A stretch of DNA of 64,000 bases from an uncultured Candidatus Binatia bacterium. Its GTDB lineage: Bacteria; Desulfobacterota; Binatia; Bin18. The notes beneath the pieces are model-generated. The model worked only from the letters and a program-made list of their open reading frames with translations, was not told where the DNA came from and made no database searches. The position numbers and the translations under genes were made by a program. The stretch is taken from positions 3,995,180-4,059,179 of the forward strand of contig CBDEVZ010000008.1 of the NCBI GenBank assembly GCA_965243735.1, in the 5' to 3' direction. Below are positions 12,203 to 48,299 of this stretch, piece by piece. The stretch's first letter is position 1; each line of letters opens with the position of its first letter.

Positions 12203-15144
12203 TTAGGAGAAGCCGACGCTGACCCCGACGAACCAGTAGCGGCCCAGGGCGTCGTACAGGCCGGGGAAGGTGTTGCCGTTGCCGGCGATGGACGGCCCGG
12301 CCGCATTGCCGGCCAGCGGCGGCGCCTTGTCGAACAGGTTGTTCACGCCGACCCGGATGCTGGTGTAGTCGTTGTAATGCCAGATCGCGGCCAGATCGAA
12401 GTAGTGCCGCGCTCCGAGATCGACCTGGGTGGAGTTGAGGTCTTCGACGCCACTGATGTAGCGCCACATGACGCTCGGCCGCAGGCCCCACGGCGTCAGC
12501 CAGGTGGCGCGCAAATTGTTTCGAATATCCGGGGTCGGAAAGCCGCAGGTCGCCCCCCAGTTGCCATTGCAGTCAACCTTGCGCGCCCCTTCCAGCTCCT
12601 GCTGGTCCCAGGTGGCGGTGATGGACAGGATATCGCTCAGGCGCAGACTCCCCCAGCGGCCGATATCAAGCTCATAGCTGGCGGTCATGTCGTAGCCCTG
12701 CACCTCCTCGATGGCCAGGTTGTCCAGCAGGGATACGATGTGGCCGCTGTTATCGAGGTCGGAGCCCAGCCACAGGTCACCGCTCCGGCCGCGTCGGACC
12801 TTGGCGCACTGCGAGGCGTTGCCGTCCAGACATTCGTTGAGGATGAACTCCGGGGTCAGGGTGCTGATGCCTTTGCTGATCTCGATGGAATAGTAGTCGA
12901 AGCTGAAGTCGAGGCCGTCGAGAAAGCCGGGCGTCCACACCAGTCCGAAAGAGTAGGTGTCGGATTCCTCGGGCGCCAGGCCCGGGTTGCCGCCCTGCAG
13001 AAAGTTGTACTGGGCGGCCGGTGAATTTTCGATGTTGCCGAACTGCGCGGCGGTCACCCCGCTACGGGCGCATTGCTCAAAGCTGCGGCCCTCGGCCGTC
13101 CTGCCGTCGGTGACCGGCCCGGCGCAGGGGTCGGCGTTCATCTCGAACAGGTTGAAGCCCTGCGGCAGAAAGCGCTCCCGCACCTGCGGGCCGCGAATCG
13201 CCCGCTGGAAACTGGCCCGCAGCCTGAGGTCGGGATGGAGCGCCCAGCCGGCGCGGACGCCAAAGGTATGGGTGTGCTCACCGTAGTCGTAGTCGGAATA
13301 GCGATAGCCGCCGTCCAGCCGCAGTTCCTCCGCAAAGCGGACGCCGTCGATCAGCGGAATGCCGGCTTCGAGGAAAAACTCCGTCACGTCGGACCCCCCG
13401 CTGACGGGGTGGCTGGCGCCACCCTGGCCGGCCCCGTCACCGCTGCGGTAGGCCTGGTTGGGAGTGAACTTGAGGTTGTCGTCACGGTATTCGCCGCCCA
13501 GGACAAGGTCCAGCCCGGTGGCGGCAAGCGGCGATCTGAGGCCGTAGCGACCGAGATTGCCGGCGATATAGCCCGACACCACAGTCTGATCGGTAGCCCC
13601 ACGGGCAGACAGGGGCAGGCTCAGGTAGTTGACCATGTCCTGGGTCACCGCACCCTCACGAAAGATGTTCCAGGGGACGCAACCGGGATCGGAACCGTCC
13701 AGCACCGAGCGACACACGACCTGCCCGCTAGCCGGATCTCTGACCGCGTCCAGCGCCCGCCTGATGCGGGTGATCGACAGGTCGTTCAAATACGAGTTCT
13801 GCATGCGAACCTCAGAGTACTGGTAGTACAGGTCGTAACGCCAATTCTCGCTGAGGTCGCCGCGTAGCCCGAATACCCCCCGGTAAGAGGTGTGGCGCAG
13901 GTCGTTTTGCCGGCTGCCGCCTCGACGTTGCGACGACCGATAAAAACGTGCTGGCTGTCATCCCGCGTCAGACCGTAGGCGCCGCACAGGGCGTCAAACT
14001 GTTGCCGGGACAGGAAGGCGTTGCCGCAGTTCAGGGTGTTGGTCACAAAGAAGGCGCCCGAGGGCGCGATCTGGGCTACCGAGCGATTGTCCATGAACAT
14101 GAACTCGGCGTAGGTCTCAACCCGGTCGTGGAGGTCGTAGTGGGCAAACAGGCCGGCGGTCCAGCGTCGGTCGGGACGCTGAAAATAGTTCGACGGCCCG
14201 TAGTTGAACAGGGTCCCTTCGCGGGGCACGAAGCGGTCGCCCTCGACCTTGTAGTCAAAGCTGTCCAGACCCTGACTTCGCAGCACGCCGAAGTCGGCAA
14301 ACGTGCCCTGGGGCTGGGTCGCCGAGCCAGAGCACTCGGAGAGGTCGTTGCTCAGGGCGCACGAACTGTAATCGCGGTCACCCTGGAGCACCGGATCGAT
14401 ATCGCGGTAGGTGCCGTAGACTGTGACGTTGCCGCGGTCCCGGCCCAGGTTGCGGCCCGCGATCAGCGACACATTCGAGATATCACCATCCCATGTTGAA
14501 CCATCGGCGACCTCATAGCCGGCGTCGCGGACAATCCGCTGCCACCGGTCACTGCCGTTGTCGTGCTGGTACTGGCTGAACTGATAGTCGAGCTTGATGC
14601 CCTCAAAGTCGTCGCGCATCAGGAAGTTGACCACCCCGGCGATGGCGTCCGAGCCATAGGTGGCCGAGGAGCCGCCGGTCAGCACCTCAACGCTCTCGAT
14701 CAGCGCGGCCGGGATCTGGTTGATATCGGCGCCGACTCCGCCTTGCAGCGGCGAGCCGGCCGGCAGACGCCGACCGTTGACCAGCACCAGGGTGCGCTCT
14801 GCGCCCAGGTTGCGCAGATTCAGGGTCGCGGTCCCAGTCGCCCCGTTCGACTGGCTGGCGTTCTGGGTGGAGTACAGCTGGGGCAGGTTACGCAGCATGT
14901 CCTCGACCCGGACGGTGCCCAGCAAGGCCAGGTCTTCAGCCTCAACCTGGATGACCGGGCTGGAGCTGAACAGGTTGGTCTGCTGAATGCGCGAGCCGGT
15001 CACCACGACCGCTTCGAGCTGCTGCGGCTCTTCGCTACCCCGAGCCTCCGGTGGCTCGGCGTCCTGGGCAAGAGCGGTCGCTGCTACAATCAGGAGGAAC
15101 GCCAGCGCAATCCCTGTCCACGTCTTTCTTCTCAGCATGGGCAC
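12203..15144 (-). pseudogene. TonB-dependent outer-membrane receptor, split by an apparent 1-bp deletion near 13911
   Basis: N-terminal ORF 13786-15144 holds the signal peptide and plug domain. C-terminal ORF 12203-13804 holds the barrel and ends ...RYWFVGVSVGFS. Against the intact paralog (GTCGAGAGCGGCAAC), this copy reads GTCGAG-GCGGCAGC. Shifting frame by one base restores GSRQNDLRHTSYRGVFGLRGDL, which matches the paralog's GNRKDYLHHTSYRGVFGLRGEL. Confidence 0.65.
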
Positions 15145-15155
15145 CTCTCAACACG

Positions 15156-15316
15156 TGTGATGCACATTACCCGGACTCGGTTCTTACCAGCCGTGCGGAA
15201 GCCGCTCAGCTGGAGACAACCCACCCCGCCGCTCACGCGCATCCCCTCCTGGGAGGGGAACCGCCCGCATCCCCTCCTGGGAGGGGTGGCCACAGGCCGG
15301 GGTGGGTTTCTTTTCG
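15156..15316. repeat. Intergenic REP/MITE-like element, family 1 (inverted orientation)
   Basis: Bounded by ACGTGTGATGCA and GCATCACACGT. Contains CCCTCCTGGGAGGGG twice. Lies between the two TonB receptor genes. Confidence 0.6.
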
Positions 15317-18540: not shown

Positions 18541-18850
18541 CCCTCTCCCCGTGAGGGCTGGGGACACGACAGTTTGGCAGAGACAGGGAATCAGGGGGCC
18601 GGGAACCGCCTCTCCCCGCCTGGGAGGGCGGCCATCCTGGCCTGGCTCGTAGGGGCACGGCATGCCGTGCCCCTACACGGATCACCCCGCCCGGCCTTCC
18701 TCCAAACTGTCGTGCCGTGAGGGAGAGGGTGGCCCGCAAGGCCGGGTGAGGGCGCGCACGGACGGCCTGAAGAGAACAATCGGCCCAATATGCATCACAC
18801 GTCCTCGGGGGGGTGACCCGCAGGGCCGGGGTGGGTACGAGCCCGCTGCC

Positions 18851-19099: not shown

Positions 19100-20239
19100 T
19101 CACCGGAACTCGGCGACCGACAGCACCAGCCGCACCAGGTCCGCCTGCCGGGAGAGGGACAGCTTGTGGTAGATCCGCTTCAGGTGCCAATAGACGGTGC
19201 CCTCCGTGCGCCCCGTCGTCACGGCCATGTCGCGCACGGTCCGACCCTCGGCCAGCCAAACCGCGATGTGGCTCTCTGACGGGGTGAGGTCCAGGGTGCG
19301 GGCCACAAGGTCAGGATCCAGGCGGGGCTGATAGTTCGGTTCAACCAGCAGCACGAGCGCGGCGACCCACCGTGCCCCAAAGTCCAGTTGGAGCCCGCCC
19401 ACGGGGGTGACGTGGACCACGAAGGCCGGCAACAGGGACGCGCGGCGCAGCAGCATCGAGCCGCTGGCGGGGGTGCCGGCAGTCGGCAGGGCGCGCGCCA
19501 CCAGCCGCGCCAACTGGTCCTGCTCGGTCGGCACGGTGGCCCGCAACAGCCCCTCCGGGTCTGACACTCCATCGCCGCGCCGCAGGAGGTCCCGGGCGCG
19601 GTCATTGGCCTCGATGACCCGCCCCTGACGGTCCAACTGGATGACGCCCACCCGGGTGTTGTTGAGCAGGGCGGTCGCGGAGGCGTCGAAGGCGTCGGCG
19701 CGGACCAGCGCCTGGCGGACACGAACAAACTGGCGCAGATGGGGCAGCAGTCCTCTGATCAGCGCCACCTGCGGAGACCGCCAACCGTCCGGGGCGAGAG
19801 GCTCATAGAGGCCCCAGACCGTGCTGGAGCCGTCTGGCTCGATCAGGCGCACGTTCAGGCAATTCTGGCTGTTGTAGCGGGGCAGGATCTCGTTGTACAT
19901 CGGCGAGGTCTTCAGCTCCTCCTCGGTGTACAGGGCCGTGTTATGCACGAGCTGGCTGTCCGCCAGATGCCGGTAGCGCGGGACGCGTTCGTCCAGGGAA
20001 AAGTAGTGTTCGAAGTACTCGCGCTCCCAGTCGGTGAGGCGCTGCCCCCGGTGGTACACTCCCACGAAGCTACAGCCCCCCAGGGCCTCGTCCTGCAGGC
20101 CTCCGCCGACCGCCAGGACATGGCCCCACAGGCCGCAGGCCTCATCAATCAGGGCCGAGGCCACCGGCCACCGGCCGTCGTAGAGCATGGCGTCGTACAG
20201 CGCGGTAACGATCCGGTCAAAAGCATCTTGGTCACTCAT
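19100..20239 (-). CDS. LuxR-family transcriptional regulator with ~300-aa N-terminal domain of unknown function (paralog 1)
   Basis: C-terminal LuxR HTH (LTPSESHIAVWLAEGRTVRDMAVTTGRTEGTVYWHLKRIYHKL). Start MSDQDAFDRIV is preceded by GGAGG-N7. Roughly 75% identical to the paralog at 53333-54478. Confidence 0.8.
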   Translation of the reverse strand: MSDQDAFDRIVTALYDAMLYDGRWPVASALIDEACGLWGHVLAVGGGLQDEALGGCSFVGVYHRGQRLTDWEREYFEHYFSLDERVPRYRHLADSQLVHNTALYTEEELKTSPMYNEILPRYNSQNCLNVRLIEPDGSSTVWGLYEPLAPDGWRSPQVALIRGLLPHLRQFVRVRQALVRADAFDASATALLNNTRVGVIQLDRQGRVIEANDRARDLLRRGDGVSDPEGLLRATVPTEQDQLARLVARALPTAGTPASGSMLLRRASLLPAFVVHVTPVGGLQLDFGARWVAALVLLVEPNYQPRLDPDLVARTLDLTPSESHIAVWLAEGRTVRDMAVTTGRTEGTVYWHLKRIYHKLSLSRQADLVRLVLSVAEFR

Positions 20240-20385
20240 CACACAACCTCCTCTCTCTCCATCTCTCTCCATTGGCCTTGCCACGCTGCCCACGCGGCCG
20301 CGCCCGCCGGACCACAGGGTCCGTCACTCGGAACGGCGCGGGGAGCAGACATGAACAACATTAGCGCCCCCCTATACCTCATCTC

Positions 20386-20605
20386 TGCACATTTTGTTCC
20401 CCCAAAATTGGTGGATAAATAATAAATTTTAGGGGACTCAGCAAAAAAATTGGGGGGAATTTCAGACGTGTGGCCGGGAATCGTCAGCCCTCCAAAATTG
20501 GAGGGTTTGCAGTTCTATATAGATCATAAAAAGTTATATAAATCGAGATTTTCAGAGACCTACCAAAATTGGAGGCTTGACGGTTCTGTCCATCTTTCAC
20601 AGATT
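20386..20605. promoter_or_regulatory. AT-rich divergent control region. It has the conserved module CACATTTTGTTCCCCCAAAATTGGTGGA...GGGGGGAATTT, four AAAATTGG boxes, and a TTGACGG-N17-CAGATT promoter
   Basis: The 560-bp intergenic region is ~40% GC in a ~65% GC background. The module recurs at 53141-53197 (reverse complement), 55331-55400 and 61612-61680. The TTGACGGTTC...TCTTTCACA promoter recurs at 26601-26647. Confidence 0.5.
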
Positions 20606-20852
20606 GCTACCTAAGTGCAGTTGCAATCAATTATCAATTGAATCACTGAGGCTAAAAATTTTTGCACCCAGCGCCCCGCAGGACACGCGTCGTGTCGGGC
20701 TGGGACTCGAACGAACTCGAAGTGACCTGGAGCAATTCATAGAGGAGGGAGGAAGGAGTGAGGAATGAAGACTTAATCAACGGCACCTAGAGGAACGAAG
20801 ACAAGTGGAAATGACCAAAAACCATTCCAAGAACGCAAAAGGAGAGCACGGA

Positions 20853-22487
20853 ATGCATCGACCGACCCGACTCCGACCCCTGACCCTGACCTTGGCACTG
20901 GGAGCGCTGGTAGCCCTGTTCGGCGCTGGCGCAGCACACGCAACCGACCCCGAAGCCTGTTCCGCTGAGCCCGCGGATGAGGTCCCCTCGAACCGCGTCG
21001 CCCTCTTCGATGTCTACTGGAACAATAGTGACGATAGAAATGACCCGAATTCCAAAACCCTGGTCAACAATCCCTGCCCGCCGACAGTCAGCCATACAGC
21101 AGGTGGTACTGACCCGATTACCGGGCTACCGACACCACCAACCACCACCCGCACCGCCTCCGACATCCACATCGACCACACCATCATCCATATTCCCGAG
21201 TCGGCCAAGCGGACGGTAACCAATAGTAACAGCGAAGATTACGGCGGAGGCTTCTACAATTTCTTGCGCCGTGGGCCGGATGAAGAAAACGGAGATGCCT
21301 CATACGCACCTTCAGCCGAGGTGTATATTGTCCCCGCCTGCGAGAAGACGGCCACGAACCCGTCCCTCTGCCTGGGTGCTTCCGCCGGCCTGCTGACCCC
21401 CGGAGACTGGGCCCCGGACCCCGCGAACCGGAATGAGGGGACCAAGATCCAGTATGAGTTCGAGGCCATTCGGGAACCGGGACACGCCACGCAAGGCTGG
21501 GGCAATGTCTTTGTCTTCAAGATAGAAGAGGACCCAGAAATCCAAGCCCAGAGACCGAGGATAATCTGGCGCACCGACGATGCCGACGACAACGAGTGGA
21601 AGGTCGCCCCCGGTGCCTACGACTATGCCTACTGGGCCTTTACCGAACCGGGTACCTACGTGTTTCACGTCCACGCCAAAGGCCACCCCAATAAGCAGCG
21701 TACCGGCGGTCCCCTCACCACTGCCGACACCGTGACCAGCGAGGTACGGCGGTACACCTTCCAAGTGGGCAATTTGCCCGTGAACCATGAACCGCTCTTT
21801 AATGTTACGCGGAAGGTGACGGAAAACGCCCCCGCCGGGACCAACGTGGGAGAACCCATATTGGTGAAAGACCTGGACGCCGACACCCTGTGTTTCGCCC
21901 TGGACGGACTCGGCGCCCATGAGAACTTTACCATTAACGGCGCTGCGAACGCCGAGAAATGCGGCACGCTGACTGCCGTGAACAGATCCGGGAACGGCCA
22001 GATGAGGGCCCAGATTCAGGTCAAGGCGGGCGCGGATCTGGACTATGAGAGCATCGACTTTTACGACATCAAGTTGTTGGTGAGCGATGGCCAGGACCAT
22101 GAGGGCAATGTCGACCTGTCCACCATCGACGACAGCGTCATAGTGTCCATCAGCCTGAGAGATGACACGTCAGATAATCCGGAAGGACCCAGCAGGAATC
22201 CCTTCTCGGTGACGGCTGAGTACCCATCACCATCAGCAGGAGAGGCAGGGTTTGACTTGGTCGCGACGTGGAATGGCCCCGCAGCAGGTGCGACATTCAG
22301 GTGGTACCGCCTTCCCCATGGCGACGAGGGGTTTCAGGCTGGTACGGACAAAAGGATCACCGTGCGACCCGGCCATACGGGAGCGTGGGAATACTGGGCA
22401 CGGGTGACCTATCGGAATGGCGGTGTCACAAGGACGCGGGAATCCAATCGAGTGAGAGTCGTCTGGCCCTGGCCGTCATCTGAGTAA
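20853..22487 (+). CDS. Secreted cadherin-domain protein
   Basis: Signal peptide MHRPTRLRPLTLTLALGALVALFGAGAAHA. GGAGAG RBS. Cadherin-like repeat (NHEPLFNVTRKVTENAPAGTNVGEPILVKDLDADTL...DYESIDFYDIKLLVSDG). Confidence 0.8.
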   Translation: MHRPTRLRPLTLTLALGALVALFGAGAAHATDPEACSAEPADEVPSNRVALFDVYWNNSDDRNDPNSKTLVNNPCPPTVSHTAGGTDPITGLPTPPTTTRTASDIHIDHTIIHIPESAKRTVTNSNSEDYGGGFYNFLRRGPDEENGDASYAPSAEVYIVPACEKTATNPSLCLGASAGLLTPGDWAPDPANRNEGTKIQYEFEAIREPGHATQGWGNVFVFKIEEDPEIQAQRPRIIWRTDDADDNEWKVAPGAYDYAYWAFTEPGTYVFHVHAKGHPNKQRTGGPLTTADTVTSEVRRYTFQVGNLPVNHEPLFNVTRKVTENAPAGTNVGEPILVKDLDADTLCFALDGLGAHENFTINGAANAEKCGTLTAVNRSGNGQMRAQIQVKAGADLDYESIDFYDIKLLVSDGQDHEGNVDLSTIDDSVIVSISLRDDTSDNPEGPSRNPFSVTAEYPSPSAGEAGFDLVATWNGPAAGATFRWYRLPHGDEGFQAGTDKRITVRPGHTGAWEYWARVTYRNGGVTRTRESNRVRVVWPWPSSE

Positions 22488-22663
22488 TGACGGGTGGCTC
22501 TCCGGTTCCACGCCTTCTGCGACTTCCCGCTTGAGGCGTGGACCTGCCCGGCCCTCCGTTCGTCCTGAGCGTAGCGTAGTAAAGTCGAAGGGCGAACGGA
22601 GGGTCAGAGGTGCAGCAGGGCTACACCTCCCACACACGTAGAGCAAATACCAATGCTGTTCTC

Positions 22664-22747
22664 GTCATTCCTGCTTCCGCAGGAATCCAGCCCCCGACTT
22701 CCAGACCCCGGATCAAAGCCGGACCCCGGACATGATCCGGGGTCCGG
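22664..22747. repeat. Intergenic repeat family 2 (hairpins GTCATTCCTGC..GCAGGAATCCAG and CCCCGGACATGATCCGGGGTCCG)
   Basis: A second copy lies at 52626-52716. Both have the same two palindromic hairpins in the same order. Confidence 0.5.
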
Positions 22748-22757
22748 CAAGACGAGA

Positions 22758-25700
22758 GTGGTTATATTGCGTCGCTTGTTCATCTCTCTGCTGACCCTTG
22801 TCGGTGTTGCCCTGAGCGGGGCGGTTGTCGGCCCTGGCACGGCTCATGCGCAAGGGAGTGACATTGACTTGGCTGTCAGCATAGTCCTTCAGGACAACGT
22901 ACAAAATCCAACCATTACCGTTGCGAATTATGGGTCTGACAACGCGTACCATGTACGGGTTGTGATGAAGGTTGACGGCATTACGCTCGGTACTACGCTC
23001 GGCCGCCCATCGCCAGGCACCGTTGCGCTCCACCCAACTGATTCCACCACTACACTGATTTGGAGCATTCCCCGGATGCCGGGGAATAGAACCTCATACA
23101 AGTATCTATTACGCACGACAGCTTCGACTTCGATAACAGTGGTTCAATATACAGCTACAGTCCATAGTGGCGTTTTCCTTGAGCCCGAGGCATTGCGGCA
23201 CAACAACCACGCCGAAGTCTGGCAGCTGAGAATCTCTGGGACTCGGACCGAGACGCCGGACCCTACATACGCTATCGAGGCGACAGTTGACAATCGTTTT
23301 CCGCAGGCCCAAGGGAGCGTGACCTTTACGCTGGTTGCCAGAAACTTGGCAACGGGAGGCACTGTGGGTCATCTTTCAGATGCTCGGGTAGACGTTCTTC
23401 TGCCTGCGGGGGGCTTGACCTATACATCGCATACCGCTCCAACAGGCACCAGCTATGATTCCAACACCGGGATATGGACCATTGGCGATTGGCGACAGAC
23501 TACCGCCACCCACTCGCTAACGCTGACGGCGACGCTGGCCGCCGACGCCGTGCTGAATGAGCAATGTGTGACCGCGGAAATATCGGCCAAGCCACCGGAA
23601 CCAATTGACGAGACGGTGAACAACCGGAGTACGGTTTGTTTGGGGGTGCTCAACGAGCCCGTGCTGTTCCAGAGCGAGCAGGTTAACCTGTTCACCCCCT
23701 ACCCATGCGTTGGTAATACTACCTCCCCATGCAATAGCCAAGACACAGTGGAAATGCTCGCACTCAAAGCAGAAGGAGAGCAATATATTCTGCCTCAGGC
23801 CACTACCGTTCAAGTATTGGACCCCGAGGGGCGCATCGTTGACGGCGCGAATATCGCGTGGAGGATTCCCTCTAGTGACACTCTCACTTTGAAACCCTCT
23901 ATAGATAATAGCTTGCTCTCTTCTTCTGATTGGACCAAGTGGCTGTGGAAAATAGCAGCAGTGCAACTGCCGACTGGGGGGCACCTCTCCATCGGCCCAG
24001 CAACAAGTACCGCCTTCGCCTATGTACACACTGGGACCAAGGCCCAGCATCCGCCTGGCGGCCTCACAGCCCTGCCCGCGGCCCTGAAGACAGCAGTACC
24101 GGTATGGATCAAATTCGAGGCCCTGGGAACTTACATCGTAAACTTCACTCAGGCAACCGCCCACGCCACCGCTAGTGGCGACTGCGACACCGACGGTGAC
24201 AACACCAACGACGCCCTCTGCGCCACCGAGGCCTACACCTTCCATGTCGGCCCGGTGGCTGAGTTGGCCGTGCGCGACGACGGTCCCAGCCCGGACGCCA
24301 CCTCCAGCCAGCGTGCCTTCACCATCATGGCCCTCAATACCGGCCCGGACTCCGCCCCCGCGGCCAAGGTGACCGTGGACCTGCAAGGCGCCAGTGTCAG
24401 TCCGCCCATTGCCAGCCAGGGCACCTACCGCAGCGGCGAGTGGTTCCTAGGCGAGTTGCAGACCACAGACTACTACCAGACCCTTGGCCAAACCGCCGGC
24501 CCGACCCTGACCTTCATCACCACCGACCCCGTGGATGCCCCCATCACCGCCACCATCACCAACACCCAGGACTACCAGGTGTGCATCGACAGCAGCGGCA
24601 ACGACCTCAGCCACACCACCCAAGCCACCTGCGAAGCCGACACCACCAACGGCGGCAGTTGGCACACCGCCAAGTACTACGACTACATTTCCACCAACAA
24701 CACCGCCACCGTGACCGCGCAGACGGGAACAGCCCCCCCACAGGCGGACATCACCGTCGAGTGGACCGCGCCGGCGGATGTCACCGTGTCCCGCTACCAG
24801 GTCTGGCGCCAGGGCAGCCCCTGGAAGCTGATCGCGGAGGTGCCGACGGGCCAGACCAGTTACACAGACTCCACTGCCGAACCCGGCCGGGCGTATCTTT
24901 ACATGGTCCGGGCCATGGACGCCCAGGGCATCCCTGTGTCGTCAGAGACACTGGTGGCCGCACCACCCCAGACCGGCGGCCAGGGCGGCCAAGACGGTTC
25001 GGGCGGTTCGACCCGTCCTCCCCCGACCGACCACCACGGCAACAGTCCGGCCACCGCCACTCCCCTCGCCCCCACCGCCCGCGTCGGTGGCCTGCTGCAC
25101 TACGGCGACCAGGATTACTTTCGCCTCGTCCTGCCCCACACCGGCCTGCTGTACGTCGAGACCACCGGCTGGAGCAACACCGTCGGCACCGTCTGGCAAG
25201 GCGGCGTCGAACTGGGCAGCGCCGAACTGGGCGGGCGACTGTACAACTTCAAGCTCGGCGTGCCCGTCCAGCCCGGCCCGGTCGTCATCCGGGTGACTGA
25301 GCGGTCGCCGACCGCCTTCGGGACCTACCGCTTGTACACGCGCTTCATCGCCGGGGCGGTCGAGCAACCGCGCCCCATCACCGTGCAGAACGGCCTGGGT
25401 ATGGTAGCCGGCTGGCTGTGTAGTGAAGACCCCGTCGTCCTGGAAATCGACGGCCTGCCCTATCACCCGGCCCCGCAGCCCGCCCCGGTTCCTCCCCCAC
25501 TCCCCCACGTGGTCGGAACCGGCGGCTCCGGGCTGCCGCCCCGGGCGGTTGATCCCCACGAGCTGTGCGACGACACGGCCACCGGCTTTGGCCTGCCCGT
25601 CAACTGGAACCTGCTGGGCGACGGCCAGCACACCCTCATCGCCTACCTGGACGGCATCGAATTCGCCCGCACCCTCGTAGACGTGACGACCCTGGGCGAG

Positions 25701-26291
25701 GAGTTCGTCCACGACGCCCACGGCACCTGTAGCGTGGCCGACTTTCCGCTGCCCGACCACAGCGTCAGCCTGGTGTGGCAGGAAGCCGGCCAGCACTTCG
25801 CCCTGAGCGACGGCCAGCCCCCGCCGTCCGTCGGCGCCACCAGCGCCAGCGATGTGCTCGGCCGGCTGGAAACCCCCGCGCCCAGCTCCTTTCAGAGCGG
25901 CCGGGGCAGCATCAGCGGCTGGGTGTGCGACGCCGAGGCCGTCAGTGTCGAGATCAACGGCACGCCGTATCCGGTCGCCTACGGCACGGCGCGGTTGGAC
26001 GTGGCGGCGGTGTGTGAGACCCCGGCGCCCGGCTTTGGGCTGAGCCTCGACTGGAATCGGCTCGGGCCGGGCGACCACGAGGTCGTGGCCCTGGCCGACG
26101 GGGCGGAGTTCGGGCGGGCCACAGTGCGGGTGACGACCCTGGGCGCGGCGTTCGCGCGCGACGCCGAATCGGCGTTTATACGGGGGCTGGCCGGGGAATG
26201 CGTGGTGGAGGACTTTCCAGCGCCCGGCGAGGCCGTCCATCTGGAGTGGCAGGAGACCACCCAGAACTTCGTCATTACCGGCGTCGAGTAA
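22758..26291 (+). CDS. Giant secreted modular protein: DUF11 repeats - FN3 - PPC-like domain - tandem ~115-aa Cys-containing C-terminal domains
   Basis: Signal peptide (RRLFISLLTLVGVALSGAVVGPGTAHA). Start is uncertain, either GTG 22758 or TTG 22767. DUF11-like (G.W.IGDW...TLT). FN3. PPC motif HYGDQDYFRLVL. Two C-terminal repeats (SGWLC/SGWVC...GFGL..NWN/DWN.LG.G.H..VAL.DG.EF.R..V.VTTLG..F...G.C.V.DFP..G..V.L.WQE..QNF). Confidence 0.8.
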   Translation: MVILRRLFISLLTLVGVALSGAVVGPGTAHAQGSDIDLAVSIVLQDNVQNPTITVANYGSDNAYHVRVVMKVDGITLGTTLGRPSPGTVALHPTDSTTTLIWSIPRMPGNRTSYKYLLRTTASTSITVVQYTATVHSGVFLEPEALRHNNHAEVWQLRISGTRTETPDPTYAIEATVDNRFPQAQGSVTFTLVARNLATGGTVGHLSDARVDVLLPAGGLTYTSHTAPTGTSYDSNTGIWTIGDWRQTTATHSLTLTATLAADAVLNEQCVTAEISAKPPEPIDETVNNRSTVCLGVLNEPVLFQSEQVNLFTPYPCVGNTTSPCNSQDTVEMLALKAEGEQYILPQATTVQVLDPEGRIVDGANIAWRIPSSDTLTLKPSIDNSLLSSSDWTKWLWKIAAVQLPTGGHLSIGPATSTAFAYVHTGTKAQHPPGGLTALPAALKTAVPVWIKFEALGTYIVNFTQATAHATASGDCDTDGDNTNDALCATEAYTFHVGPVAELAVRDDGPSPDATSSQRAFTIMALNTGPDSAPAAKVTVDLQGASVSPPIASQGTYRSGEWFLGELQTTDYYQTLGQTAGPTLTFITTDPVDAPITATITNTQDYQVCIDSSGNDLSHTTQATCEADTTNGGSWHTAKYYDYISTNNTATVTAQTGTAPPQADITVEWTAPADVTVSRYQVWRQGSPWKLIAEVPTGQTSYTDSTAEPGRAYLYMVRAMDAQGIPVSSETLVAAPPQTGGQGGQDGSGGSTRPPPTDHHGNSPATATPLAPTARVGGLLHYGDQDYFRLVLPHTGLLYVETTGWSNTVGTVWQGGVELGSAELGGRLYNFKLGVPVQPGPVVIRVTERSPTAFGTYRLYTRFIAGAVEQPRPITVQNGLGMVAGWLCSEDPVVLEIDGLPYHPAPQPAPVPPPLPHVVGTGGSGLPPRAVDPHELCDDTATGFGLPVNWNLLGDGQHTLIAYLDGIEFARTLVDVTTLGEEFVHDAHGTCSVADFPLPDHSVSLVWQEAGQHFALSDGQPPPSVGATSASDVLGRLETPAPSSFQSGRGSISGWVCDAEAVSVEINGTPYPVAYGTARLDVAAVCETPAPGFGLSLDWNRLGPGDHEVVALADGAEFGRATVRVTTLGAAFARDAESAFIRGLAGECVVEDFPAPGEAVHLEWQETTQNFVITGVE

Positions 26292-26600
26292 GACGCCAAC
26301 GTATCCCCTCCACGGAGGGGGGGCCGACCCGGGGACCCCATCCTCCCCCCCGGCCCGCTGCCCTTTCCCCTCCGGGCAGCGGGAGCCCGGCCCATTCTCC
26401 CCCGGGCGGGGCGGGTGCCACAGCAGCCCGCTCCGAGAGGGGCTGCTGTGGCGGGAAAATCCCCCTCACTCCCCCTTTGTCAACTGCACATGGCGTCATA
26501 CAACGCCGCGAGGCTGCGCTCAAAGGCGTCTCGGTCACTCACCACATAGCCTCTTCGCTCCACCGCCCCGCCAAACGGCCCGTGTCCGCAGGATCGACTG

Positions 26601-26647
26601 CCCCCTAAAATTGGAGGCTTGACGGTTCCATCGGTCTTTCACAAATT
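26601..26647 (+). promoter_or_regulatory. Conserved promoter CCCCCTAAAATTGGAGGCTTGACGG-N17-CAAATT upstream of the NHL-repeat gene
   Basis: Same AAAATTGGAGGCTTGACGGTTC...TCTTTCACA architecture as 20561-20605. Followed by a ~160-nt conserved leader. Confidence 0.45.
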
Positions 26648-26804
26648 AAATGAGATAAAGTTGCAATTACATATTAATGTCAATTAAGTCCTTACCTGTC
26701 CAGTGGAGGCCCTGACTGCGTACTGAGGCCCGCGGTCCCCGAACCGAGCGCTCGGTAAGACCAACGTCATACTGGGTGAAGGTGGAGGACCGGAGGAGCA
26801 AGAG

Positions 26805-29800
26805 GTGTGCAGTAGCGTCCGACCCATTCCCCCGCATCCGAGGCGTCATCCGTTCCGCTTCCCTATTGCGCTGAGTCTGATCCTGGCCGCACTGCTGGGC
26901 GGTACGGCAGGAGCGCAGCAACCTTCTTCATTGATACGCTGGCGGGCCCAAGCTGGCCCTATCCTGACTATCCCAATAGCGTGGCGGTCGCCAGCGACGG
27001 CACCATCTACCTGGCCGACCGCGACAGCCATACCGTCTTACGGGTAGAAACGGACGGGAGCCTCAGTGTCCTGGCGGGAACGGGATTCGCCGGCTACAGC
27101 GGCGACGGCGGAGCAGCAGCGGCAGCCCAACTCAACACGCCCACCGGCGTGGCGGTGACCGCCGATGACGCCACCGTGTACATTGCCGACCGAGCCAACA
27201 ACCGCATCCGCAAGGTCGATGTGGCCACCCGGATCATCACCACGTTCGCCGGGACGGGAAGCGCCGGCTTCAACGGCGACGGCGGGGCAGCAACGGCAGC
27301 CGTCTTGAACCTGCCCATTGGCGTGGCGGTGGACGGCGACGGCAACGTGTACATTGCCGACCTGAACAACCACCGCATCCGGAAAGTGACGGTAGCTACC
27401 GGAGTTATCGACACGATTGCGGGCTCGGGGGCTTACGGCTCCGGGCAGGGCGGCTACGGAGGGGATAACGGGCCGGCAACGGCGGCGCGGCTCAACAACC
27501 CCGTCGGTGTGGCGGTGGACGGCGACGGCAATGTGTACATCGGGGACTGGAGCAACAACCGCGTGCGCAAGGTAGATGTCAGTATGGACCCTCCGACCAT
27601 CACCACGATTGCGGGAAACGGGACCTCCGGTTTCAGCGGTGACGATGGCCAGGCGACTGCGGCTCAGCTTGCGAACCCCTATGGTGTAGCGGTGGCCAGC
27701 GATGGGACGGTGTACATCACCGATTCGACCAACCAGCGTGTGCGCAAGGTGGCCACCGACGGGGTCATTACCACGGTTGCGGGCTCGGGAGCGAGCAGCG
27801 GCGACATCTACGAGGACGGCATCCAGGCAACCGCAGCGCGGCTTGTGAATCCCCGCGACGTGGCGCTGGACAGCAGTGGCAATTTCTATATTGCTATGCA
27901 GGGTCAAAACGACCAAGGCGCCATCCGCAAGGTTGATACCAGCGGGATCATCACCACGGTCGCGGGGGGCTGGACCCGCGGCTTCAGCGGTGACGGCGGG
28001 CCGGCGAAGGCAGCCCGGCTTAATGGAGCCACTGACGTGGCGGTCGACAGCAGCGGCAACGTGTACATTGCCGATTACACCAACAACCGCATCCGCAAGG
28101 TCGATACCAGCGGGATTATCACCACATTTGCGTCTACGGGGATCACGAGCCCCCGTGGCCTGGCGGTCGACAGCAGCGACAACGTGTACGTTGCTCAGAA
28201 CCACCGTATCCTGAAGATTGATGGCAGCACGGCTCCCCCGACCATCACCACAGTCGCCGGAACGGGGAGCAGCGGCTTCAGCGGCGACGGCGGAGCGGCA
28301 ACCTCGGCCCAGCTCGACTCTCCCTATGGCGTGGCAATCGACAGCGCCGGCAACATCTACATCGCCGATGGGGGGAATCATCGTGTGCGGAAGGTCGACG
28401 TCAGTGCGGACCCGCCGACCATCGCTACGTTCGCGGGCTCGGGGAGCCATAGTTCCGGAGGGTTCAGCGGCGACGGCGGAGCGGCAACCTCGGCCCGGCT
28501 CGACTCTCCCTATGGCGTGGCAATCGACAGTGACGGCAACGTGTACATTGCCTGTTATTTCAATCACCGGGTCCGCAAGGTCGACGTCAGTGCGGACCCG
28601 CCGACCATCGCTACATTCGCGGGCTCGGGGAGCCATAATTCCGGTGGCTTCGGCGGCGACGGCGGGGCGGCGACCGCAGCCCGGCTTAACAGCCCCTACG
28701 GCGTAGCGGTGGCCAGCGATGGGACGGTGTACATCGCCGATGCGAACAACCGCCGCATCCGGGCCGTGGCGACCGACGGGACGATTAACACAGTGGCGGG
28801 AACGGGGACGGGGATCACCTTACCAGGCGTACCCGACGGCAGCCTGGCGACCGCTGCCACTGTCTATTTTCCCAGAAAAGTCGCAGTCTCCAGCACCGGC
28901 GCTGTGTACATCGCCTGGAGTAACCTGGTGAGCGTGTTGACGACAAACGGACCGCCACAGGCGCGTGACGCCAGCCCAATGACGCCAACAGGGACGCAGG
29001 CTATCATCGCTCTACCGGTATCCGACCCGAACGGTGATCCGATGACCGTAACGGTGAGCACGCCGCCAACAAACGGCACGACGACGGTCTCCGGCACTAC
29101 CATCTACTATACGCCGAACGCGGGCTTTACCGGCGTTGACACCTTCGCGTACACGGTCTCCGACGGCCAGGGCGGCAGCGCCACGGCAACGATCAGAGTC
29201 AGGGTGGGAGCCGAAGCCGGGGCCCCGCCCCCGCCCCCCGCGGACGGCGCAGGCGGCGCAGGCGGGGCGGGCCGGCGCCAGCCAACCGACCACCACGGCA
29301 ATAGCCCGGCCACCGCCACTCCGCTGGCTCCCACCGCCCGCGCCGGCGGCCTGCTGCACTACGGCGACCAGGATTACTTTCGCCTCGTCCTGCCCCACGC
29401 CGGCCTGCTGTACGTCGAGACCACCGGCTGGAGCAACACCGTCGGCACCGTCTGGCAAGGCGGCGTCGAACTCGGCAGCGCCGAACTGGGCGGACGGCTG
29501 TACAACTTCAAGCTCGGCGTGCCCGTCCAGCCCGGCCCGGTCGTCATCCGAGTGACCGAGCGGTCGCGAACCGCCTTCGGGACCTACCGCTTGTACACGC
29601 GCTATCTCCCTGGGTCGATTGACCACCCGCGCCCCCTCACCGTCCAGAACGGCCTGGGCATGGTAGCCGGCTGGCTGTGCAGCGCCGACCCCGTCGTGCT
29701 GGAGATCGACGGCCAGCCCTACTACCCGGCCCCGCTGCCCGCGCCGGTCTCCCCGCCGTCCGACCTCGTGATCAGCCTCGGCGGCTCCGGGCTGCCGCCC

Positions 29801-30550
29801 CGGGCGGTTGATCCCGATGAGCTGTGCGACGACACCGCTACCGGCTTTGGCCTGCCCGTCAACTGGAACCTGCTGGGTGACGGCCAGCACACCCTCATCG
29901 CCTACCTGGACGGCATTGAATTCGCCCGCACCGTCGTAGACGTGACGACCCTGGGCGAAGAGTTCGTCCACGACGCCCACGGCACCTGTAGCGTGCCCGA
30001 CTTTCCGCTGCCCGACCACAGCGTCAGCCTGGTCTGGCAGGAAGCCGGCCAGCACTTCGCCCTGAGCGACGGCCAGCCCCCGCCGTCCGTCAGCGCCACC
30101 AGCGCCAGTGAGGTGCTTGGCCGGCTGGAGACCCCCGCGCCCGGCTCCTTCCAGAGCGGCCGGGGCGTCATCAGCGGCTGGGTGTGCGACGCCGAGGCCG
30201 TCAGTATCGAGATTGACGGTACACCGTATCCGGTCGCCTACGGCACGGCGCGGTTGGACGTGGCGGCGGTGTGTGAGACCCCGGCGCCCGGCTTTGGGCT
30301 GAGCCTCGACTGGAATCGGCTCGGGCCGGGCAACCACGAGGTCGTGGCCCTGGCCGACGGGGCGGAGTTCGGGCGGGCCATGGTGCGGGTGACGACCCTG
30401 GGCGCGGCGTTCGCGCGCGATGCCGGATCGGCCTTCGTGCGGGGGCTGGCCGGGGAATGCGTCGTCGAGGACTTTCCAGCGCCCGGCGAGGCCGTCCATC
30501 TGGAGTGGCAGGAGGCCACGCAGAACTTCGTTATCACCGGCGTCGAGTAG
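26805..30550 (+). CDS. Giant secreted NHL-repeat beta-propeller protein with cadherin-like Ig domain, PPC-like domain and tandem C-terminal domains. The signal-peptide exon is out of frame with the body
   Basis: GTG 26805 with GGAGGAG RBS encodes signal peptide MCSSVRPIPPHPRRHPFRFPIALSLILAALLG in frame 0. The body from about 26930 is in frame 2 (..YPNSVAVASDGTIYLADRD). It has more than 11 NHL units (YIAD..NNRIRKVD). The C-terminus is ~95% identical at DNA level to the preceding gene. Confidence 0.7.
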
Positions 30551-30827
30551 GGGTGCCGCGGGCGTCTTCCCTCCCGGGCCGGCTACTGCAAAAAGGCACC
30601 CACCCCGGCCCTCCAGGCCACCCCTCCGAGGAGGGGAACTGCCCTCATCCCCGCCTTGGAGGGGCGATACAAATGAGATACAGTTGCAATTACATATTAA
30701 TGTCAACTAAGTCCTCGCCTGTCCGGTGGAGGTCCTGATTGCGTACTGAGGCCCGCGGTCCCCGAACCGAGCGCTCGGTAAGACCAACGTCATACTGGGT
30801 GGAGGTAGAGGACCGGAGGAGCAAGAG

Positions 30828-33800
30828 GTGTGCAGTAGCGTCCGACCCATTCCCCCGCATCCGAGGCGTCATCCGTTCCGCTTCCCTATTGCGCTGAGTC
30901 TGGTCCTGGCCGCACTGCTGGGCGTGGGCGCACCTCCGGTCCAGGCCGCGCCCAGCTTCACCGTTGACAGCATTGACCCGGTGGTCTTCACCACGTCGCC
31001 TGGGACCGGGTCGGGTTGTACGCAGCCCACCAACTCCGTCACCCTGCCCGACGCCACCGGCACGGGGACCATATCCTACACCATCACCCCCACCCTGCCC
31101 GCCGGCATCACGCTCTCTGGCAGGGATCTCACCGCCGCACCAGCGACGGTGCAGGCCCAGGCCGCTACGGCCTACACCTACACTGCCACCGACGACGCCG
31201 ACGCCCAGACGGCCTCCCTCACCTTGACCATTGAGGTCGTGGACGAGAGAGCCGTGTTGCAGACCCTCTACAATGCGACTGACGGCCCCAACTGGAAGAC
31301 CACAACCGGCGGCTGGGCCAATCCCATCACGGCCACCTGCCTGGCGGACTTGCAAGGCGTCACGCTCACGAGTGGGCGGGTAGCCAGAATCTCTCTCATA
31401 GAAAACAAGCTGACCGGCTCGATTCCCCCTGAACTGGGCAAGCTAACCGGCCTGACCCGTCTCTTCCTCAACAGCGTCGAACCGGCCGACCCGAATGACA
31501 ACCAACTGACCGGAGAGATTCCCCCTGAGCTGGGCAAGCTGACCAGATTGACCCAACTCCAACTCCACAACAACCAACTGACCGGAGAGATTCCCCCTGA
31601 GCTGGGCACCCTGACCGAGCTGACCTGGCTCTGGCTCTACAACAACCAACTGACCGGAGAGATTCCCGACCTGAGCAAGCTGGCCAAGCTGAGACTGCTC
31701 CACCTCCACAACAACCAACTGAGTGGGGCGATCCCCGCCGGGACGGATAATGCTAACAATCCGACCGGGTTGGCCAAACTCACCAACCTGGAGGTGCTTA
31801 GCCTCTCCGACAACCAACTGACCGGAGAGATTCCCCCTGAACTGGGCACCCTGGCCAACCTGCTAAATCTCTATCTCGACAATAACCAACTGAGTGGGGC
31901 GCTTCCCACAGAGTTGGGCAGCCTCGCCAACCTGAGCGGCCTCTTTCTCAACAACAATCGACTGGAGGGCGCGCTTCCCACGGAGTTGGGCAACCTGACC
32001 TACCTGACCTATCTCTGGCTCCACAACAACCAACTGAGCGGGACCATCCCGACCCAATTGGACAGCCTCACCAGCCTGATCTGGCTCTATCTCCACAACA
32101 ACCAACTGAGCGGGACCATCCCGACCCAATTGGGCAGCCTCACCAGCCTGCAACGGCTCTATCTCCACGACAACCAACTAACCGGGGCGCTTCCGACCCA
32201 ATTGGGCAGCCTCGCCAGCCTGCAAGGGCTCTATCTCTACAACAACCGACTGAGCGGGGCGCTTCCCACGGAGTTGGGCAGCCTCGCCAACCTGCAACAG
32301 CTCTATCTCTACAACAACCCCCTGAGCGGCCCGGTGCCGTCAGGATGGGGCGGCAGCACGTATCCTCTCACGAGCCTGACTGATCTTGACCTCAGCTACA
32401 CCAACCTGACCGGCACGCTGCCAACCGCCTTGGCCACCCGGCGGGATGCCGATCCCCCCACCCTCACCGTGACGTGGGACACCATCGTTGACCGGACCTC
32501 CCTGCCCACCGAAGTGGCGAGTGTCCGCATTGAGTGGGCTTCCCCCCCCGATCCGACCGTCACGGATCCCACCGCCTTCAGCGTGGGGCCGCCGGCCGGC
32601 ACCACCTTCCCCGAGCCCCGGCAAATCTATACCCTGACGGCCCTCGATAGTGGCGGGGACGCCGTAACGGACCGCCTGAGCGCCTCCATAGAGGTGTGTC
32701 TGCCCCGACCGGCGGGCCTGACGGCCCCACTCTATGTGTACCGCTACCAGCCGGCGGCGGACACGACCCAGCCGGGACGCTGGGAGCGTTTGACCGCGGG
32801 GTGGCGCGTCAGCGATAGGGAGGTGTGCGCCACAGTCTCGCAGTTCTCCGACTTCCAGGTCGGCACGTACACGCCTCCGCCGCCTCCGCCACCGTCACGA
32901 CAAGGCGGCGGGGGTGGTCGTCCCCGCGACGACCATGGCAACTCCGCCAGCCGGGCTACTCGGATTCCGCTGACCGCCCGCATGGTCGGACAGATCGGCA
33001 CCCGCAGCGATGTCGATTATTTCACGCTCACCGTGCCCCACGCCGGAATCCTGGTCGTCGAGACCACCGGCTCGACCGATACCCGCGGTACGGTGTGGCA
33101 GGACGGCGCACGGCTGGCCACCGCCGATAGCGGGGGGACGGGGCAGAACTTCCGGCTCAGCGTGCAGGCCGAAGCCGGACCGGTGGTGATTGCCGTACGG
33201 GGCAACGGGCGACAGACCGGCCGCTACGTCTTACAGACGACCCTGGTCGTCGGCTTTCTGGAGAACCCTAGCCCGGACTCCTTCCAGAGCGGTATCGGCA
33301 CCCTGTCGGGCTGGGTATGTGAGGCCGACGAGGTCGTGCTGGAAATCAACGGCACACCCTTTTCTGCCGCCTACGGCACGGCCCGCAGCGACACCCAAGA
33401 CACGTGCGGAGACACGGACAACGGCTTCGGCCTGCTGTTCAACTGGAACGAGCTGGGCGACGGCCGGCACGAGGTCGTGGCCCTGGTCGATGGGGTCGAG
33501 CTGAGCCGCACCAGCGTGACCGTCACCACCCTGGGCACGCCGTTTCTGCGGGAGGCAAGCGGGACGTGTGAAGCCACCGACTTTCCGAGCACGGGTGAGC
33601 ATGTGACCCTGGTATGGCAGGAAGCCAAGCAGAACTTCGTCATCACCGACGGCGGTAGCCCGCCCACGGGCAGCTCTGCCGTTGAAAGCGAAGTCACCGG
33701 CTTTCTGGAGAACCCCGCCCCCAACTCCTTCCAGAGCGGGGTCGGGCTGCTGTCGGGCTGGGTGTGTGAGGCGGATGGCGTCACCCTGGAGATCGACGGT

Positions 33801-34285: not shown

Positions 34286-34439
34286 TCTGATGCATATTGC
34301 GTTATCCAGCGCCTAGAAAGCACCCACCCCGGCCCTCTGGGCCACCCCTCCGAGGAGGGGAACCGCGCGAGCGGCGGGGTGGGTGATCTCCGGCTCAGCG
34401 GCACCCGGGCGCAAGTTCCTGGGAACGTGCATTACACGT
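34286..34439. repeat. Intergenic REP/MITE-like element, family 1 (degenerate terminal repeats)
   Basis: CACCCACCCCGGCC...CACCCCTCCGAGGAGGGGAAC...GCGGCGGGGTGGGT...GTGCATTACACGT. Closely matches the 1112-1281 copy. Confidence 0.5.
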
Positions 34440-35092: not shown

Positions 35093-35184
35093 GTGTAGTA
35101 GGTCGGATTAGCGGAGCGTAATCCGACACGCACGGGATGTCAGGTTACGCCTCCGGCTAACCTGACCTACACGGCTGCACCTAA
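35093..35184. repeat. Intergenic repeat family 3 (nested palindromes CGGATTAGCGGAGCGTAATCCG and CAGGTTACGCCTCCGGCTAACCTG)
   Basis: A reverse-complement copy lies at 48201-48299. A partial copy lies at 61955-61995. Confidence 0.5.
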
Positions 35185-35227
35185 TAGTCAATTGCTCTAG
35201 GCAAGCGCTGAAAAAAGGAGGACGAGC

Positions 35228-47953: not shown

Positions 47954-48193
47954 ATGGATCACGTCGTCGGGGTCTACCAGGGCATAGTACGGGATAACCG
48001 CGACCCGCAAAAGAGGCTGCGGCTCAAGGTCGAGGTGTTTGAGGTGCCGGGCGTGGCCGAGTGGGCGCTGCCGTGCCTGCCGCCGGGCGTGGAGAGCCTG
48101 CCCGGCGTCGGCGAAACGGTCTGGCTGGTGTTTCAGGGCGGCGACCGCCGCAAGCCGGTCTGGCTCGGCGTGCTGCCGGGTAGTCTGGCCTAG
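47954..48193 (+). CDS. Orphan phage baseplate protein V / gp5 N-terminal OB-fold-like mini-protein
   Basis: GVYQGIVRDNRDPQKRLRLKVEVF...LPGVGETVWLVFQGGDRRKPVWLGV matches the Phage_base_V pattern. Only 79 aa. No other phage genes are nearby. Confidence 0.45.
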   Translation: MDHVVGVYQGIVRDNRDPQKRLRLKVEVFEVPGVAEWALPCLPPGVESLPGVGETVWLVFQGGDRRKPVWLGVLPGSLA

Positions 48194-48200
48194 CGCGTTT

Positions 48201-48299
48201 CACCCTTAGGTGTAGCCGTGTAGGTCAGGTTAGCCGGAGGCGTAACCTGACATCCCGTACGTGTCGGATTACGCTCCGCTAATCCGACCTACCACACCC
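48201..48299. repeat. Intergenic repeat family 3 (reverse-complement copy)
   Basis: Reverse complement of 35093-35184 with the same nested palindromes. Confidence 0.5.

Follow-up and report, generated by a model that had tools for sequence, protein, structure and literature searches.

Two paralogous LuxR-type proteins of an uncultured Candidatus Binatia bacterium with a predicted acyl-homoserine-lactone-receptor-like sensor, a PAS domain and a palindromic promoter module

Two paralogous LuxR-type genes, here called LuxR-1 and LuxR-2, are located in a 64,000-nt stretch of DNA from an uncultured Candidatus Binatia bacterium (contig CBDEVZ010000008.1, positions 3,995,180 to 4,059,179; the window), close to genes for large secreted repeat proteins (exoproteins). 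Judged by their structure models, the products are cytoplasmic one-component regulators, in which a sensor domain resembling the ligand-binding domain (LBD) of acyl-homoserine lactone (AHL) receptors is followed by a long helix, a PAS domain and a LuxR/GerE helix-turn-helix (HTH). The reading which we favour, and to which we give somewhat better than even chances, is that both are ligand-responsive dimeric activators which recognize a paralog-specific palindrome at about position -43, regulate their own genes and switch on the adjacent exoprotein and TetR genes. We infer that LuxR-1 and LuxR-2 bind DNA and that they activate rather than repress. Each would form a dimer whose HTH pair binds a 16-bp palindrome (predicted site CCNCCAATTTTGGNGG), and this palindrome would span roughly -51 to -36 of weak-consensus promoters with its centre near -43, as for LuxR/TraR-type class II activators. 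A small molecule, not a canonical AHL, would be sensed by the N-terminal and/or the PAS domain, and the ligand-bound regulator would activate its own promoter together with those of adjacent genes. In the window, the predicted targets comprise one TetR gene and three operons that encode large secreted repeat proteins (DUF11/fn3, NHL and S8 protease-cadherin-fn3).

Both open reading frames (ORFs) lie where they had been described, LuxR-1 at 19100–20239 on the minus strand (coding sequence of 379 aa plus stop) and LuxR-2 at 53333–54478 on the plus strand (381 aa plus stop). Automatic ORF calls run further, to upstream GTG codons (20293 and 53270). In the family alignment (A1, 40 sequences), the proteins start with MSDQDAFDRI, from an ATG (20239 in LuxR-1, 53333 in LuxR-2) which is preceded by a purine-rich ribosome-binding site in both genes; the start was set accordingly, in agreement with the original prediction. 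The proteins are identical at 299 of 381 positions (78%, E = 0 in BLASTP), slightly above the ~75% first estimated, and the DNA identity of 86% reaches ~180 nt upstream of both start codons. The pair is a recent duplication of promoter and gene. Nei-Gojobori estimates of the ratio of nonsynonymous to synonymous substitutions (dN/dS) gave 0.53 for the whole gene (dS = 0.245), with 0.38 for the N-terminal domain, 0.99 for the PAS domain and 0.65 for the HTH. Judged by these sequence comparisons, constraint in the pair appears relaxed or diversifying, chiefly in the PAS domain, and DNA specificity appears unchanged. Since their recognition helices are identical, LuxR-1 and LuxR-2 probably share sites.

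The full-length AlphaFold2 model was computed from an alignment of 47 sequences (predicted local distance difference test, pLDDT, 86.9; predicted template modelling score, pTM, 0.79). It shows an alpha/beta domain at residues 1–150, a helix at 155–180, a second alpha/beta domain at 188–300 and a four-helix HTH at 309–378. The ~300 N-terminal residues had been taken for one domain of unknown function: residues 1–150 indeed match no sequence family, but the model divides the region into two domains and a helix. In LuxR-1 the segments are, all on the minus strand, the sensor domain with AHL-receptor-LBD-like fold (residues 1–152, 19784–20239, pLDDT 90), the long connecting helix (residues 153–186, 19682–19783), the PAS domain (residues 187–305, 19325–19681) and the LuxR/GerE four-helix HTH with the putative recognition helix TVYWHLKRIYHKL (residues 306–379, 19103–19324). 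LuxR-2 has the same three-domain layout.

The C-terminal LuxR HTH proposed earlier is the only Pfam domain found (GerE, PF00196, residues 318–371), with 25.7 bits in LuxR-1 at a cutoff of 23.5, and with 21.5 bits, slightly under this cutoff, in LuxR-2. GerE was matched in 44 of 47 family members, and the family profile matches VraR/NarL/GerE HTH structures with E-values down to 1e-6. The best NCBIfam matches, all sub-threshold, are the HTHs of response regulators of the NarL/FixJ kind. A REC (Response_reg) domain, already said to be lacking, was found by neither Pfam nor NCBIfam in either paralog, and the N-terminal fold is not that of REC either; an AAA/NACHT ATPase domain is likewise absent from both according to Pfam, NCBIfam and the AlphaFold2 model. 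Directly N-terminal of the HTH, residues 188–300 are a PAS domain. PAS_8, PAS and PAS_4 of Pfam match sub-threshold at residues 190–253 (E = 4e-4 to 2e-3), PAS_8 was matched in 27 of 47 family members, and the family profile matches PAS sensor structures such as 3ewk. Furthermore, in Foldseek the full-length model resembles the PAS-HTH proteins VqmA and EL222 as well as tandem PAS-GAF phytochromes. D203 and N212 of the PAS domain do not vary, not even among the remotest members of the family.

For the N-terminal domain, no sequence match was obtained with Pfam, NCBIfam or searches of PDB sequences by phmmer and hmmsearch, and Autoind_bind (PF03472) was found in neither paralog by Pfam or NCBIfam. 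Modelled alone, the domain reached a pLDDT of 90.2. Nearly all of its top 50 Foldseek matches in the PDB are the LBDs of LasR, VqsR, CepR2, CviR, TraR, RhlR and SdiA, with template modelling scores of 0.5–0.69, 12–15% identity and E = 1e-5 to 5e-4. The original prediction had stated that an autoinducer-binding signature is lacking. This is correct for the sequence only, because the fold of residues 1–185 is closest to AHL-receptor LBDs; on the evidence of the models, the sensor has the fold of the autoinducer-binding domain without its signature. Structure prediction, which had been suggested as a check on the idea of a ligand sensor, thus returned sensor-like folds for both N-terminal domains, an AHL-receptor-LBD-like one and a PAS domain. 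The N-terminal motifs quoted at that time are present, and they lie in columns of the family alignment that are invariant or nearly so. Nine polar or aromatic residues (Y75, Y79, D83, E84, E108, S112, Y115, E117 and R131) are near-invariant across the family and would suit a ligand pocket.

A conserved promoter module had been reported beside each paralog, and it was indeed recovered in both upstream regions. At the core of the module is a 16-bp palindrome, CCNCCAA-TT-TTGGNGG. The window contains five copies of the core CCAATTTTGG (0.10 expected), and with up to two mismatches the dyad has seven window sites (0.63 expected), all of which are intergenic and oriented with the downstream gene. 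On the minus strand, the module of LuxR-1 has the palindrome CCACCAATTTTGGGGG at 20399–20414, with a -35-like GGAACA (20395–20400) and a -10-like TATAGG (20371–20376) that were assigned by position. In the middle of the intergenic region between LuxR-1 and the exoprotein gene lies the perfect palindrome CCTCCAATTTTGGAGG (20489–20504), followed at 20560–20575 by a plus-strand one facing the exoprotein gene at 20805. The module of LuxR-2 holds CTACCAATTTTGGGGG (53171–53186, plus strand) and a -10-like TATGGA (53209–53214), that of the TetR gene CAACCAATTTTGGGGG (55343–55358, minus strand) and that of the operon for a small secreted protein and an S8 exoprotein CCACCAATTTTAGGGG (61623–61638, minus strand). 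The seventh site faces the NHL exoprotein gene (26602–26617, plus strand). Dyad search and module alignment show that the modules of LuxR-1, LuxR-2, TetR and the S8 operon align across ~100 nt; in all four the dyad is followed by AACAA, and TAT starts exactly 22 nt past the dyad. The two plus-strand dyads facing exoprotein genes are followed by cTTGACG, a 17-nt spacer and CA(G/A)ATT (TTGACG 20577–20582 and CAGATT 20600–20605; TTGACG 26619–26624 and CAAATT 26642–26647). Two other explanations of these regions were rejected. The predicted leaders fold no better than shuffled sequences (z = -0.44, 0.03, -1.04 and -0.61), and Rfam yielded a single match in the window, a tRNA, and no riboswitch; a structured 5' leader or riboswitch was therefore discarded. 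An invertible promoter was considered because tyrosine recombinases adjoin some of the homologs; in the window, the three palindromes at 20399–20575 are each self-symmetric and have no flanking inverted-repeat pair, and there is no recombinase.

The comparison was extended to 84 loci, comprising 82 fetched relatives and the two window genes. The exact CCAATTTTGG is restricted to the closest relatives, therefore a generalised dyad was searched for (16 bp, C...G frame, A/T-rich centre, at least 6 of 7 complementary arm positions), with expected counts from dinucleotide shuffles. An 8-mer enrichment upstream of the homologs was uninformative. Between -320 and -60 of the LuxR homolog 25 dyads were found (0.68 expected, at most 4 in any shuffle) and within 170 nt past its stop codon another 15 (0.43 expected), counts which are not independent as many of the loci are orthologous. 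The upstream density is 26-fold that elsewhere in the loci. TAT or TAG begins exactly 22 nt past the dyad in 21 of 40 cases and at 24 nt in 7 more. If TAT is the -10 element, the dyad would extend from about -51 to -36 and be centred near -43.5. Class II LuxR-type activators have their lux and tra boxes in this -43 region.

At least six distinct half-site types exist, each paired with its own recognition-helix variant: type A, CCNCCAA with EGTVYWHLKR; type B, CCCGTAA with ERSIHWHLRQ; type C, CTACCAA with EGAIYWHLKQ; type D, CTATCAA with ERAIYWHLRQ; type E, CMTCCAA with EGTIYWHLKQ; and type F, CCTATCA with ERSVRWYLHQ. As the types coincide with lineages, this co-variation is confounded by phylogeny and no more than suggestive. 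Paralogs of one genome bear different types, as seen for L012, L013, L046 and L077 from record OZ219745. The locus-specific dyad is also found 60–300 nt upstream of large exoprotein genes (at both flanks in L060, furthermore in L048 and L034), upstream of TetR_C_41 genes (L008, L011) and upstream of a TonB receptor gene (L042). Paralogs elsewhere differ in both helix and palindrome, which suggests parallel local circuits.

Several results weigh against the activator reading. A strict sigma-70 scan found no promoter in either LuxR upstream region; the -35 and -10 elements, and hence the position at -43, were for this reason assigned by positional conservation only, although the negative scan fits weak, activator-dependent promoters. 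Only ~30% of the loci give a palindrome at the threshold used, and the pairing of half-sites with helices is confounded as stated. One exoprotein gene of the window, the leucine-rich repeat (LRR) gene at 30828, has no palindrome, 56 of the 82 loci have no recognisable member of the window's exoprotein family within 6 kb, and the promoter of the TetR gene carries the same site, so that TetR could be the binder. As to the sensor, homology to AHL receptors finds little support in the sequence: Autoind_bind gave one match among 26 N-terminal domains (E = 0.13), and an hhalign comparison of the family profile with LasR (sequence checked against PDB 6mwh), collinear over 109 columns, is weak (E = 0.018, probability 2.5%).

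The original prediction had named the two proteins as the best candidates for master regulators of the exoprotein system. The link to exoproteins is upheld by the palindrome module before the operons at 20805, 26805 and 61486; the master role is not. Genomes hold many paralogs, each with its own palindrome variant beside its own gene, which suggests local and probably orthogonal action; moreover, most loci lack the exoprotein family nearby, and TetR and, elsewhere, TonB receptor genes bear the site as well. The association of LuxR with exoproteins is real but not exclusive, and it looks local rather than that of a master.

Could the palindrome be the operator of another factor, such as the adjacent TetR repressor, and the LuxR genes be members of the regulon and not its regulators? 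The TetR gene (54652–55257, minus strand; TetR_N and TetR_C_41) is preceded by the palindrome and is a recurrent partner of the LuxR homolog. Its family occurs in 11 related loci (L006, L008, L010, L011, L019, L026, L029, L039, L062, L072 and L075), and in 12 Binatia loci such a gene lies directly 3' of the LuxR homolog; Pfam domains were checked for the window gene and L008, and the locus palindrome precedes the gene wherever this was checked (window, L008, L011). TetR operators are typically palindromes of ~16 bp. The best NCBIfam match of the window TetR, sub-threshold and restricted to the HTH part, is to ScbR-type autoregulator receptors. However, most palindrome loci have no TetR gene within 6 kb (for example LuxR-1, L012, L028, L048 and L060), and the LuxR gene is the sole constant neighbour. 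In addition, the fixed distance to TAT sets the site upstream of and overlapping -35, a position of activators rather than of typical repressors, and the half-site type tracks the LuxR recognition helix. We therefore regard TetR or another factor as an unlikely binder.

About equally unlikely, in our judgement, is that LuxR-1 and LuxR-2 are ordinary local regulators of nutrient uptake or metabolism which, in genomes with an abundance of exoprotein genes, lie beside some of them by chance. LuxR-1 is followed on its own strand by two genes for TonB-dependent receptors, an arrangement also found in L081, where the LuxR gene is a 93% ortholog; the palindrome ahead of the TonB receptor gene in L042 and the metabolic neighbours of many loci (P450, chalcone synthase, BCCT) point in the same direction. 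Yet the window palindromes face the exoprotein operons and not the TonB genes, and members of the exoprotein family turn up repeatedly, in 26 of 82 loci and in two phyla. The second TonB-dependent receptor (12203–15144, minus strand) is split into a Plug ORF (13786–15144) and a barrel ORF (12203–13804); its syntenic L081 ortholog is intact, with ~980 aa.

A further alternative, that the proteins are genuine quorum-sensing LuxR solos which bind AHLs from the same or from neighbouring bacteria, draws on the AHL-receptor LBDs being the best fold matches. AHL receptors share six conserved ligand-pocket residues, the WYDPWG motif (PMC4235431). In the weak hhalign alignment only the Y and D equivalents, two of the six, are conserved in our family: Y75 pairs with LasR Y64 and D83 with LasR D73, both of which are contacts of the AHL head group. 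In TraR the motif consists of W57, Y61, D70, P71, W85 and G113. Of the remaining positions, W71 pairs with LasR W60, with W restricted to the window clade and mostly L elsewhere, E84 with LasR P74 and H99 with LasR W88, and no glycine matches G113. Autoind_bind remained undetected by Pfam, the proteins have an extra PAS domain and ~380 instead of ~240 aa, and a non-exhaustive scan of window ORFs revealed no LuxI-type gene. Thus, AHL binding appears quite improbable, and a non-AHL ligand is the likelier reading. Finally, it is very doubtful that the repeated module is a functionless relic of a segmental duplication or a small repeat element: LuxR-1 and LuxR-2 do form one continuous ~1.3 kb block of similarity including the upstream region, and other dispersed repeats exist in the genome, but the module also stands in correct orientation before unrelated genes (TetR, S8 operon), and palindrome and fixed-distance TAT are kept across phyla despite unrelated flanks and half-sites.

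The candidate targets favoured by the activator reading are encoded as follows. Divergent from LuxR-1, an operon at 20805–26291 (plus strand) codes for a 560-aa secreted protein and a 1212-aa DUF11/fn3 exoprotein; it is syntenic in L081, where the divergent LuxR/exoprotein arrangement is kept and the TonB receptors follow. In NCBIfam, the first gene (20805–22487, plus strand) resembles two surface-protein domains, 'choice-of-anchor M' and TIGR03769, weakly and below threshold. The NHL-repeat exoprotein gene (26805–30550, plus strand) has the palindrome upstream. The signal peptide with its GTG start (26805) lies in a different frame from the ORF at 26981–30550, which reflects either a frameshift pseudogene or an assembly error. 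Divergent from the NHL gene, at 26480–26542 on the minus strand, 20 codons are left of a third LuxR paralog (VSDRDAFERSLAALYDAMCS followed by a stop), with the palindrome kept at 26602–26617; it seems that every exoprotein locus was formerly equipped with a regulator of its own. The S8 operon (minus strand) consists of a small secreted protein (60902–61486) and a 1,709-aa S8 subtilase/fn3/cadherin exoprotein (55755–60884), and just past its promoter module lies the tRNA gene (62079–62151, minus strand) that is the sole Rfam match of the window.

All four large exoproteins of the window share a C-terminal tandem of two ~150-aa domains (25329–26288, 29588–30547 and 33144–34103 on the plus strand, 55758–56717 on the minus strand) with the motif LENPxPxSFQSGxGxISGWVCEA ... 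GFGLxxNWNxLGDGxHEV ... WQExxQNFVIT. The tandem has no Pfam or NCBIfam match; it might serve as a module for secretion, sorting or anchoring. Neighbours of the homologs were compared by crude ORF calls and all-against-all BLASTP, and members of the exoprotein family with this C-terminal domain (F1) are encoded no farther than 6 kb from the LuxR homolog in 26 of the 82 loci, in both phyla and with 35 ORFs. The majority of the other large neighbours scanned possess domains of the Calx-beta, cadherin, fn3 or BACON/peptidase kinds; that of L061 is a P-type metal ATPase. In six Acidobacteriota loci (L035, L047, L049, L053, L054 and L067) a tyrosine recombinase gene (Phage_integrase) lies directly 3' of the LuxR homolog, at ~+1960 to +2950 from its start and, in L047 at least, between the palindrome past the gene and a large Calx-beta/cadherin gene.

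Within the window, a direct repeat of 254 nt (96%; 26648–26901 and 30671–30924) extends over leader and signal peptide in both the NHL and the LRR gene. The LRR copy has neither palindrome nor promoter and is preceded instead by a GC-rich hairpin element (30598–30664), which recurs at 15243–15291, 18802–18836 and 34322–34356. Long inverted repeats connect distant intergenic regions (35093–35205 with 48185–48297, 113 nt, 91%; 1178–1285 with 15152–15259, 108 nt, 85%). Two paralogous beta-propeller genes of the SMP-30/gluconolactonase/LRE-like (SGL) type are located at 35228–36115 and 38581–39486 (plus strand), one of which is also present in L081; some members of the SMP-30/gluconolactonase superfamily hydrolyse lactones.

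The family is large and has no name of its own. A search of 5.8 billion proteins yielded more than 2,100 matches, and a profile search among representatives at 50% identity gave 994 clusters at E <= 1e-30, a number that rises to 14,668 at E <= 1e-10; the matches returned are named generically at most, for instance 'helix-turn-helix' or 'CsgD family/PAS'. Relatives are encoded in 290 stretches from GTDB species representatives. The best 80 of these 290, from which the taxonomy was read, all come from metagenome-assembled genomes of Candidatus Binatia and Acidobacteriota (Vicinamibacterales, Terriglobia, Bryobacterales and Ca. Versatilivorator), apart from single records labelled Thermodesulfobacteriota and Dehalococcoidia, and single genomes among them supply 3–4 copies. 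One match (P0001) is identical to LuxR-1, and the longest contig of its cluster measures 5.22 Mb; the cluster of a second paralog, 84% identical, has a longest contig of equal size, which together with LuxR-2 suggests at least three paralogs per genome. At the periphery, P0406 is ~22% identical over its full length to the distant member P0308 and is matched in length by numerous relatives from Xanthobacteraceae and soil metagenomes, annotated only generically; these are a sister branch. IMG/VR contains no relatives of the family, therefore an origin from phages or mobile elements was rejected.

Clusters at 70% identity are phylum-pure, and the mean identity between Binatia and Acidobacteriota is 63%, as compared to 68% among Binatia paralogs. 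For a transcription factor, such a cross-phylum value points to a past exchange between lineages with subsequent local expansion. The mix of taxa, metaMDBG-style contig names and eukaryotic-like neighbours suggest that the bacteria are sponge-associated symbionts; assemblies of sponge symbionts and their phylum signature have been described (PMC13087572). Literature searches on characterised members, on LuxR in sponge symbionts and on the habitats of the metagenome-assembled genomes yielded nothing directly relevant.

From this a wider picture can be drawn, which we put forward as tentative and consider rather less probable than not. The proteins would constitute a family of signal receptors whose sensor has deeply diverged from the AHL-binding domain and was fused to PAS, which is shared by co-resident symbiont phyla (Binatia and Acidobacteriota, ~63% identity) and has diversified into orthogonal regulator/operator pairs, each switching on its own eukaryotic-like surface or secreted proteins (LRR, NHL, cadherin, fn3, Calx-beta) upon a signal from host or community. 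If true, uncultured symbionts of the sponge type would provide the first case of a regulatory code for host-interaction factors among them. Large secreted repeat proteins of these kinds, often referred to as 'eukaryotic-like proteins', form the chief genomic hallmark of uncultured bacteria that live with animals, and in the searchable literature we found no description of how they are regulated. LuxR-1 and LuxR-2 are plausible local switches for such host-interaction proteins. The family provides a testable handle, with defined regulators, a predicted operator with lineage-specific variants and predicted target promoters, all amenable to heterologous hosts without culturing the organisms. Furthermore, the sensor repertoire of LuxR proteins would be extended by an AHL-receptor-like fold that is invisible to sequence profiles, joined to PAS and found outside Proteobacteria.

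Compared with known systems, these proteins are LuxR-type one-component regulators by their C-terminal HTH, with a new three-domain architecture; by defining sequence features they do not belong to the AHL receptors, whose fold they share, nor are they plain PAS-LuxR regulators. With AHL-type receptors and solos (LasR, TraR, CviR, SdiA, CepR2, VqsR) they have in common the GerE HTH, the alpha/beta/alpha sensor fold and the equivalents of the head-group Tyr and Asp. Their palindromic site would resemble lux and tra boxes in its position at about -43 if TAT is the -10 element. They differ from these in the missing Autoind_bind match and in four of six WYDPWG positions, which are not conserved; AHL-type receptors have ~240 aa and two domains, often with a cognate luxI close by, whereas the present proteins have ~380 aa with an intervening PAS domain and long helix. 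The lux box measures 18–20 bp, the present site 16 bp with C/G flanks and an A/T core, and AHL-type receptors belong to Proteobacteria, the present family to Binatia and Acidobacteriota. NarL/FixJ response regulators and MalT/LAL proteins share the GerE HTH, but the present proteins have neither REC nor an AAA/NACHT ATPase. The PAS-LuxR regulators (VqmA of Vibrio and phage VP882, the LOV-HTH protein EL222, Photorhabdus PAS4-LuxR solos and the PimM type) likewise carry PAS directly N-terminal of the GerE HTH. For the Photorhabdus solos, which are multi-paralog as well, host sensing was proposed (PMC4235431), and the likeness includes several paralogs per genome in bacteria that also appear host-associated. 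A flavin/LOV or DPO-binding signature was not seen in the present family, no test having been aimed at one. However, PAS-LuxR regulators consist of two domains and 190–260 aa, to which the present family adds a better-conserved, LBD-like N-terminal domain of ~150 aa and a linker helix.

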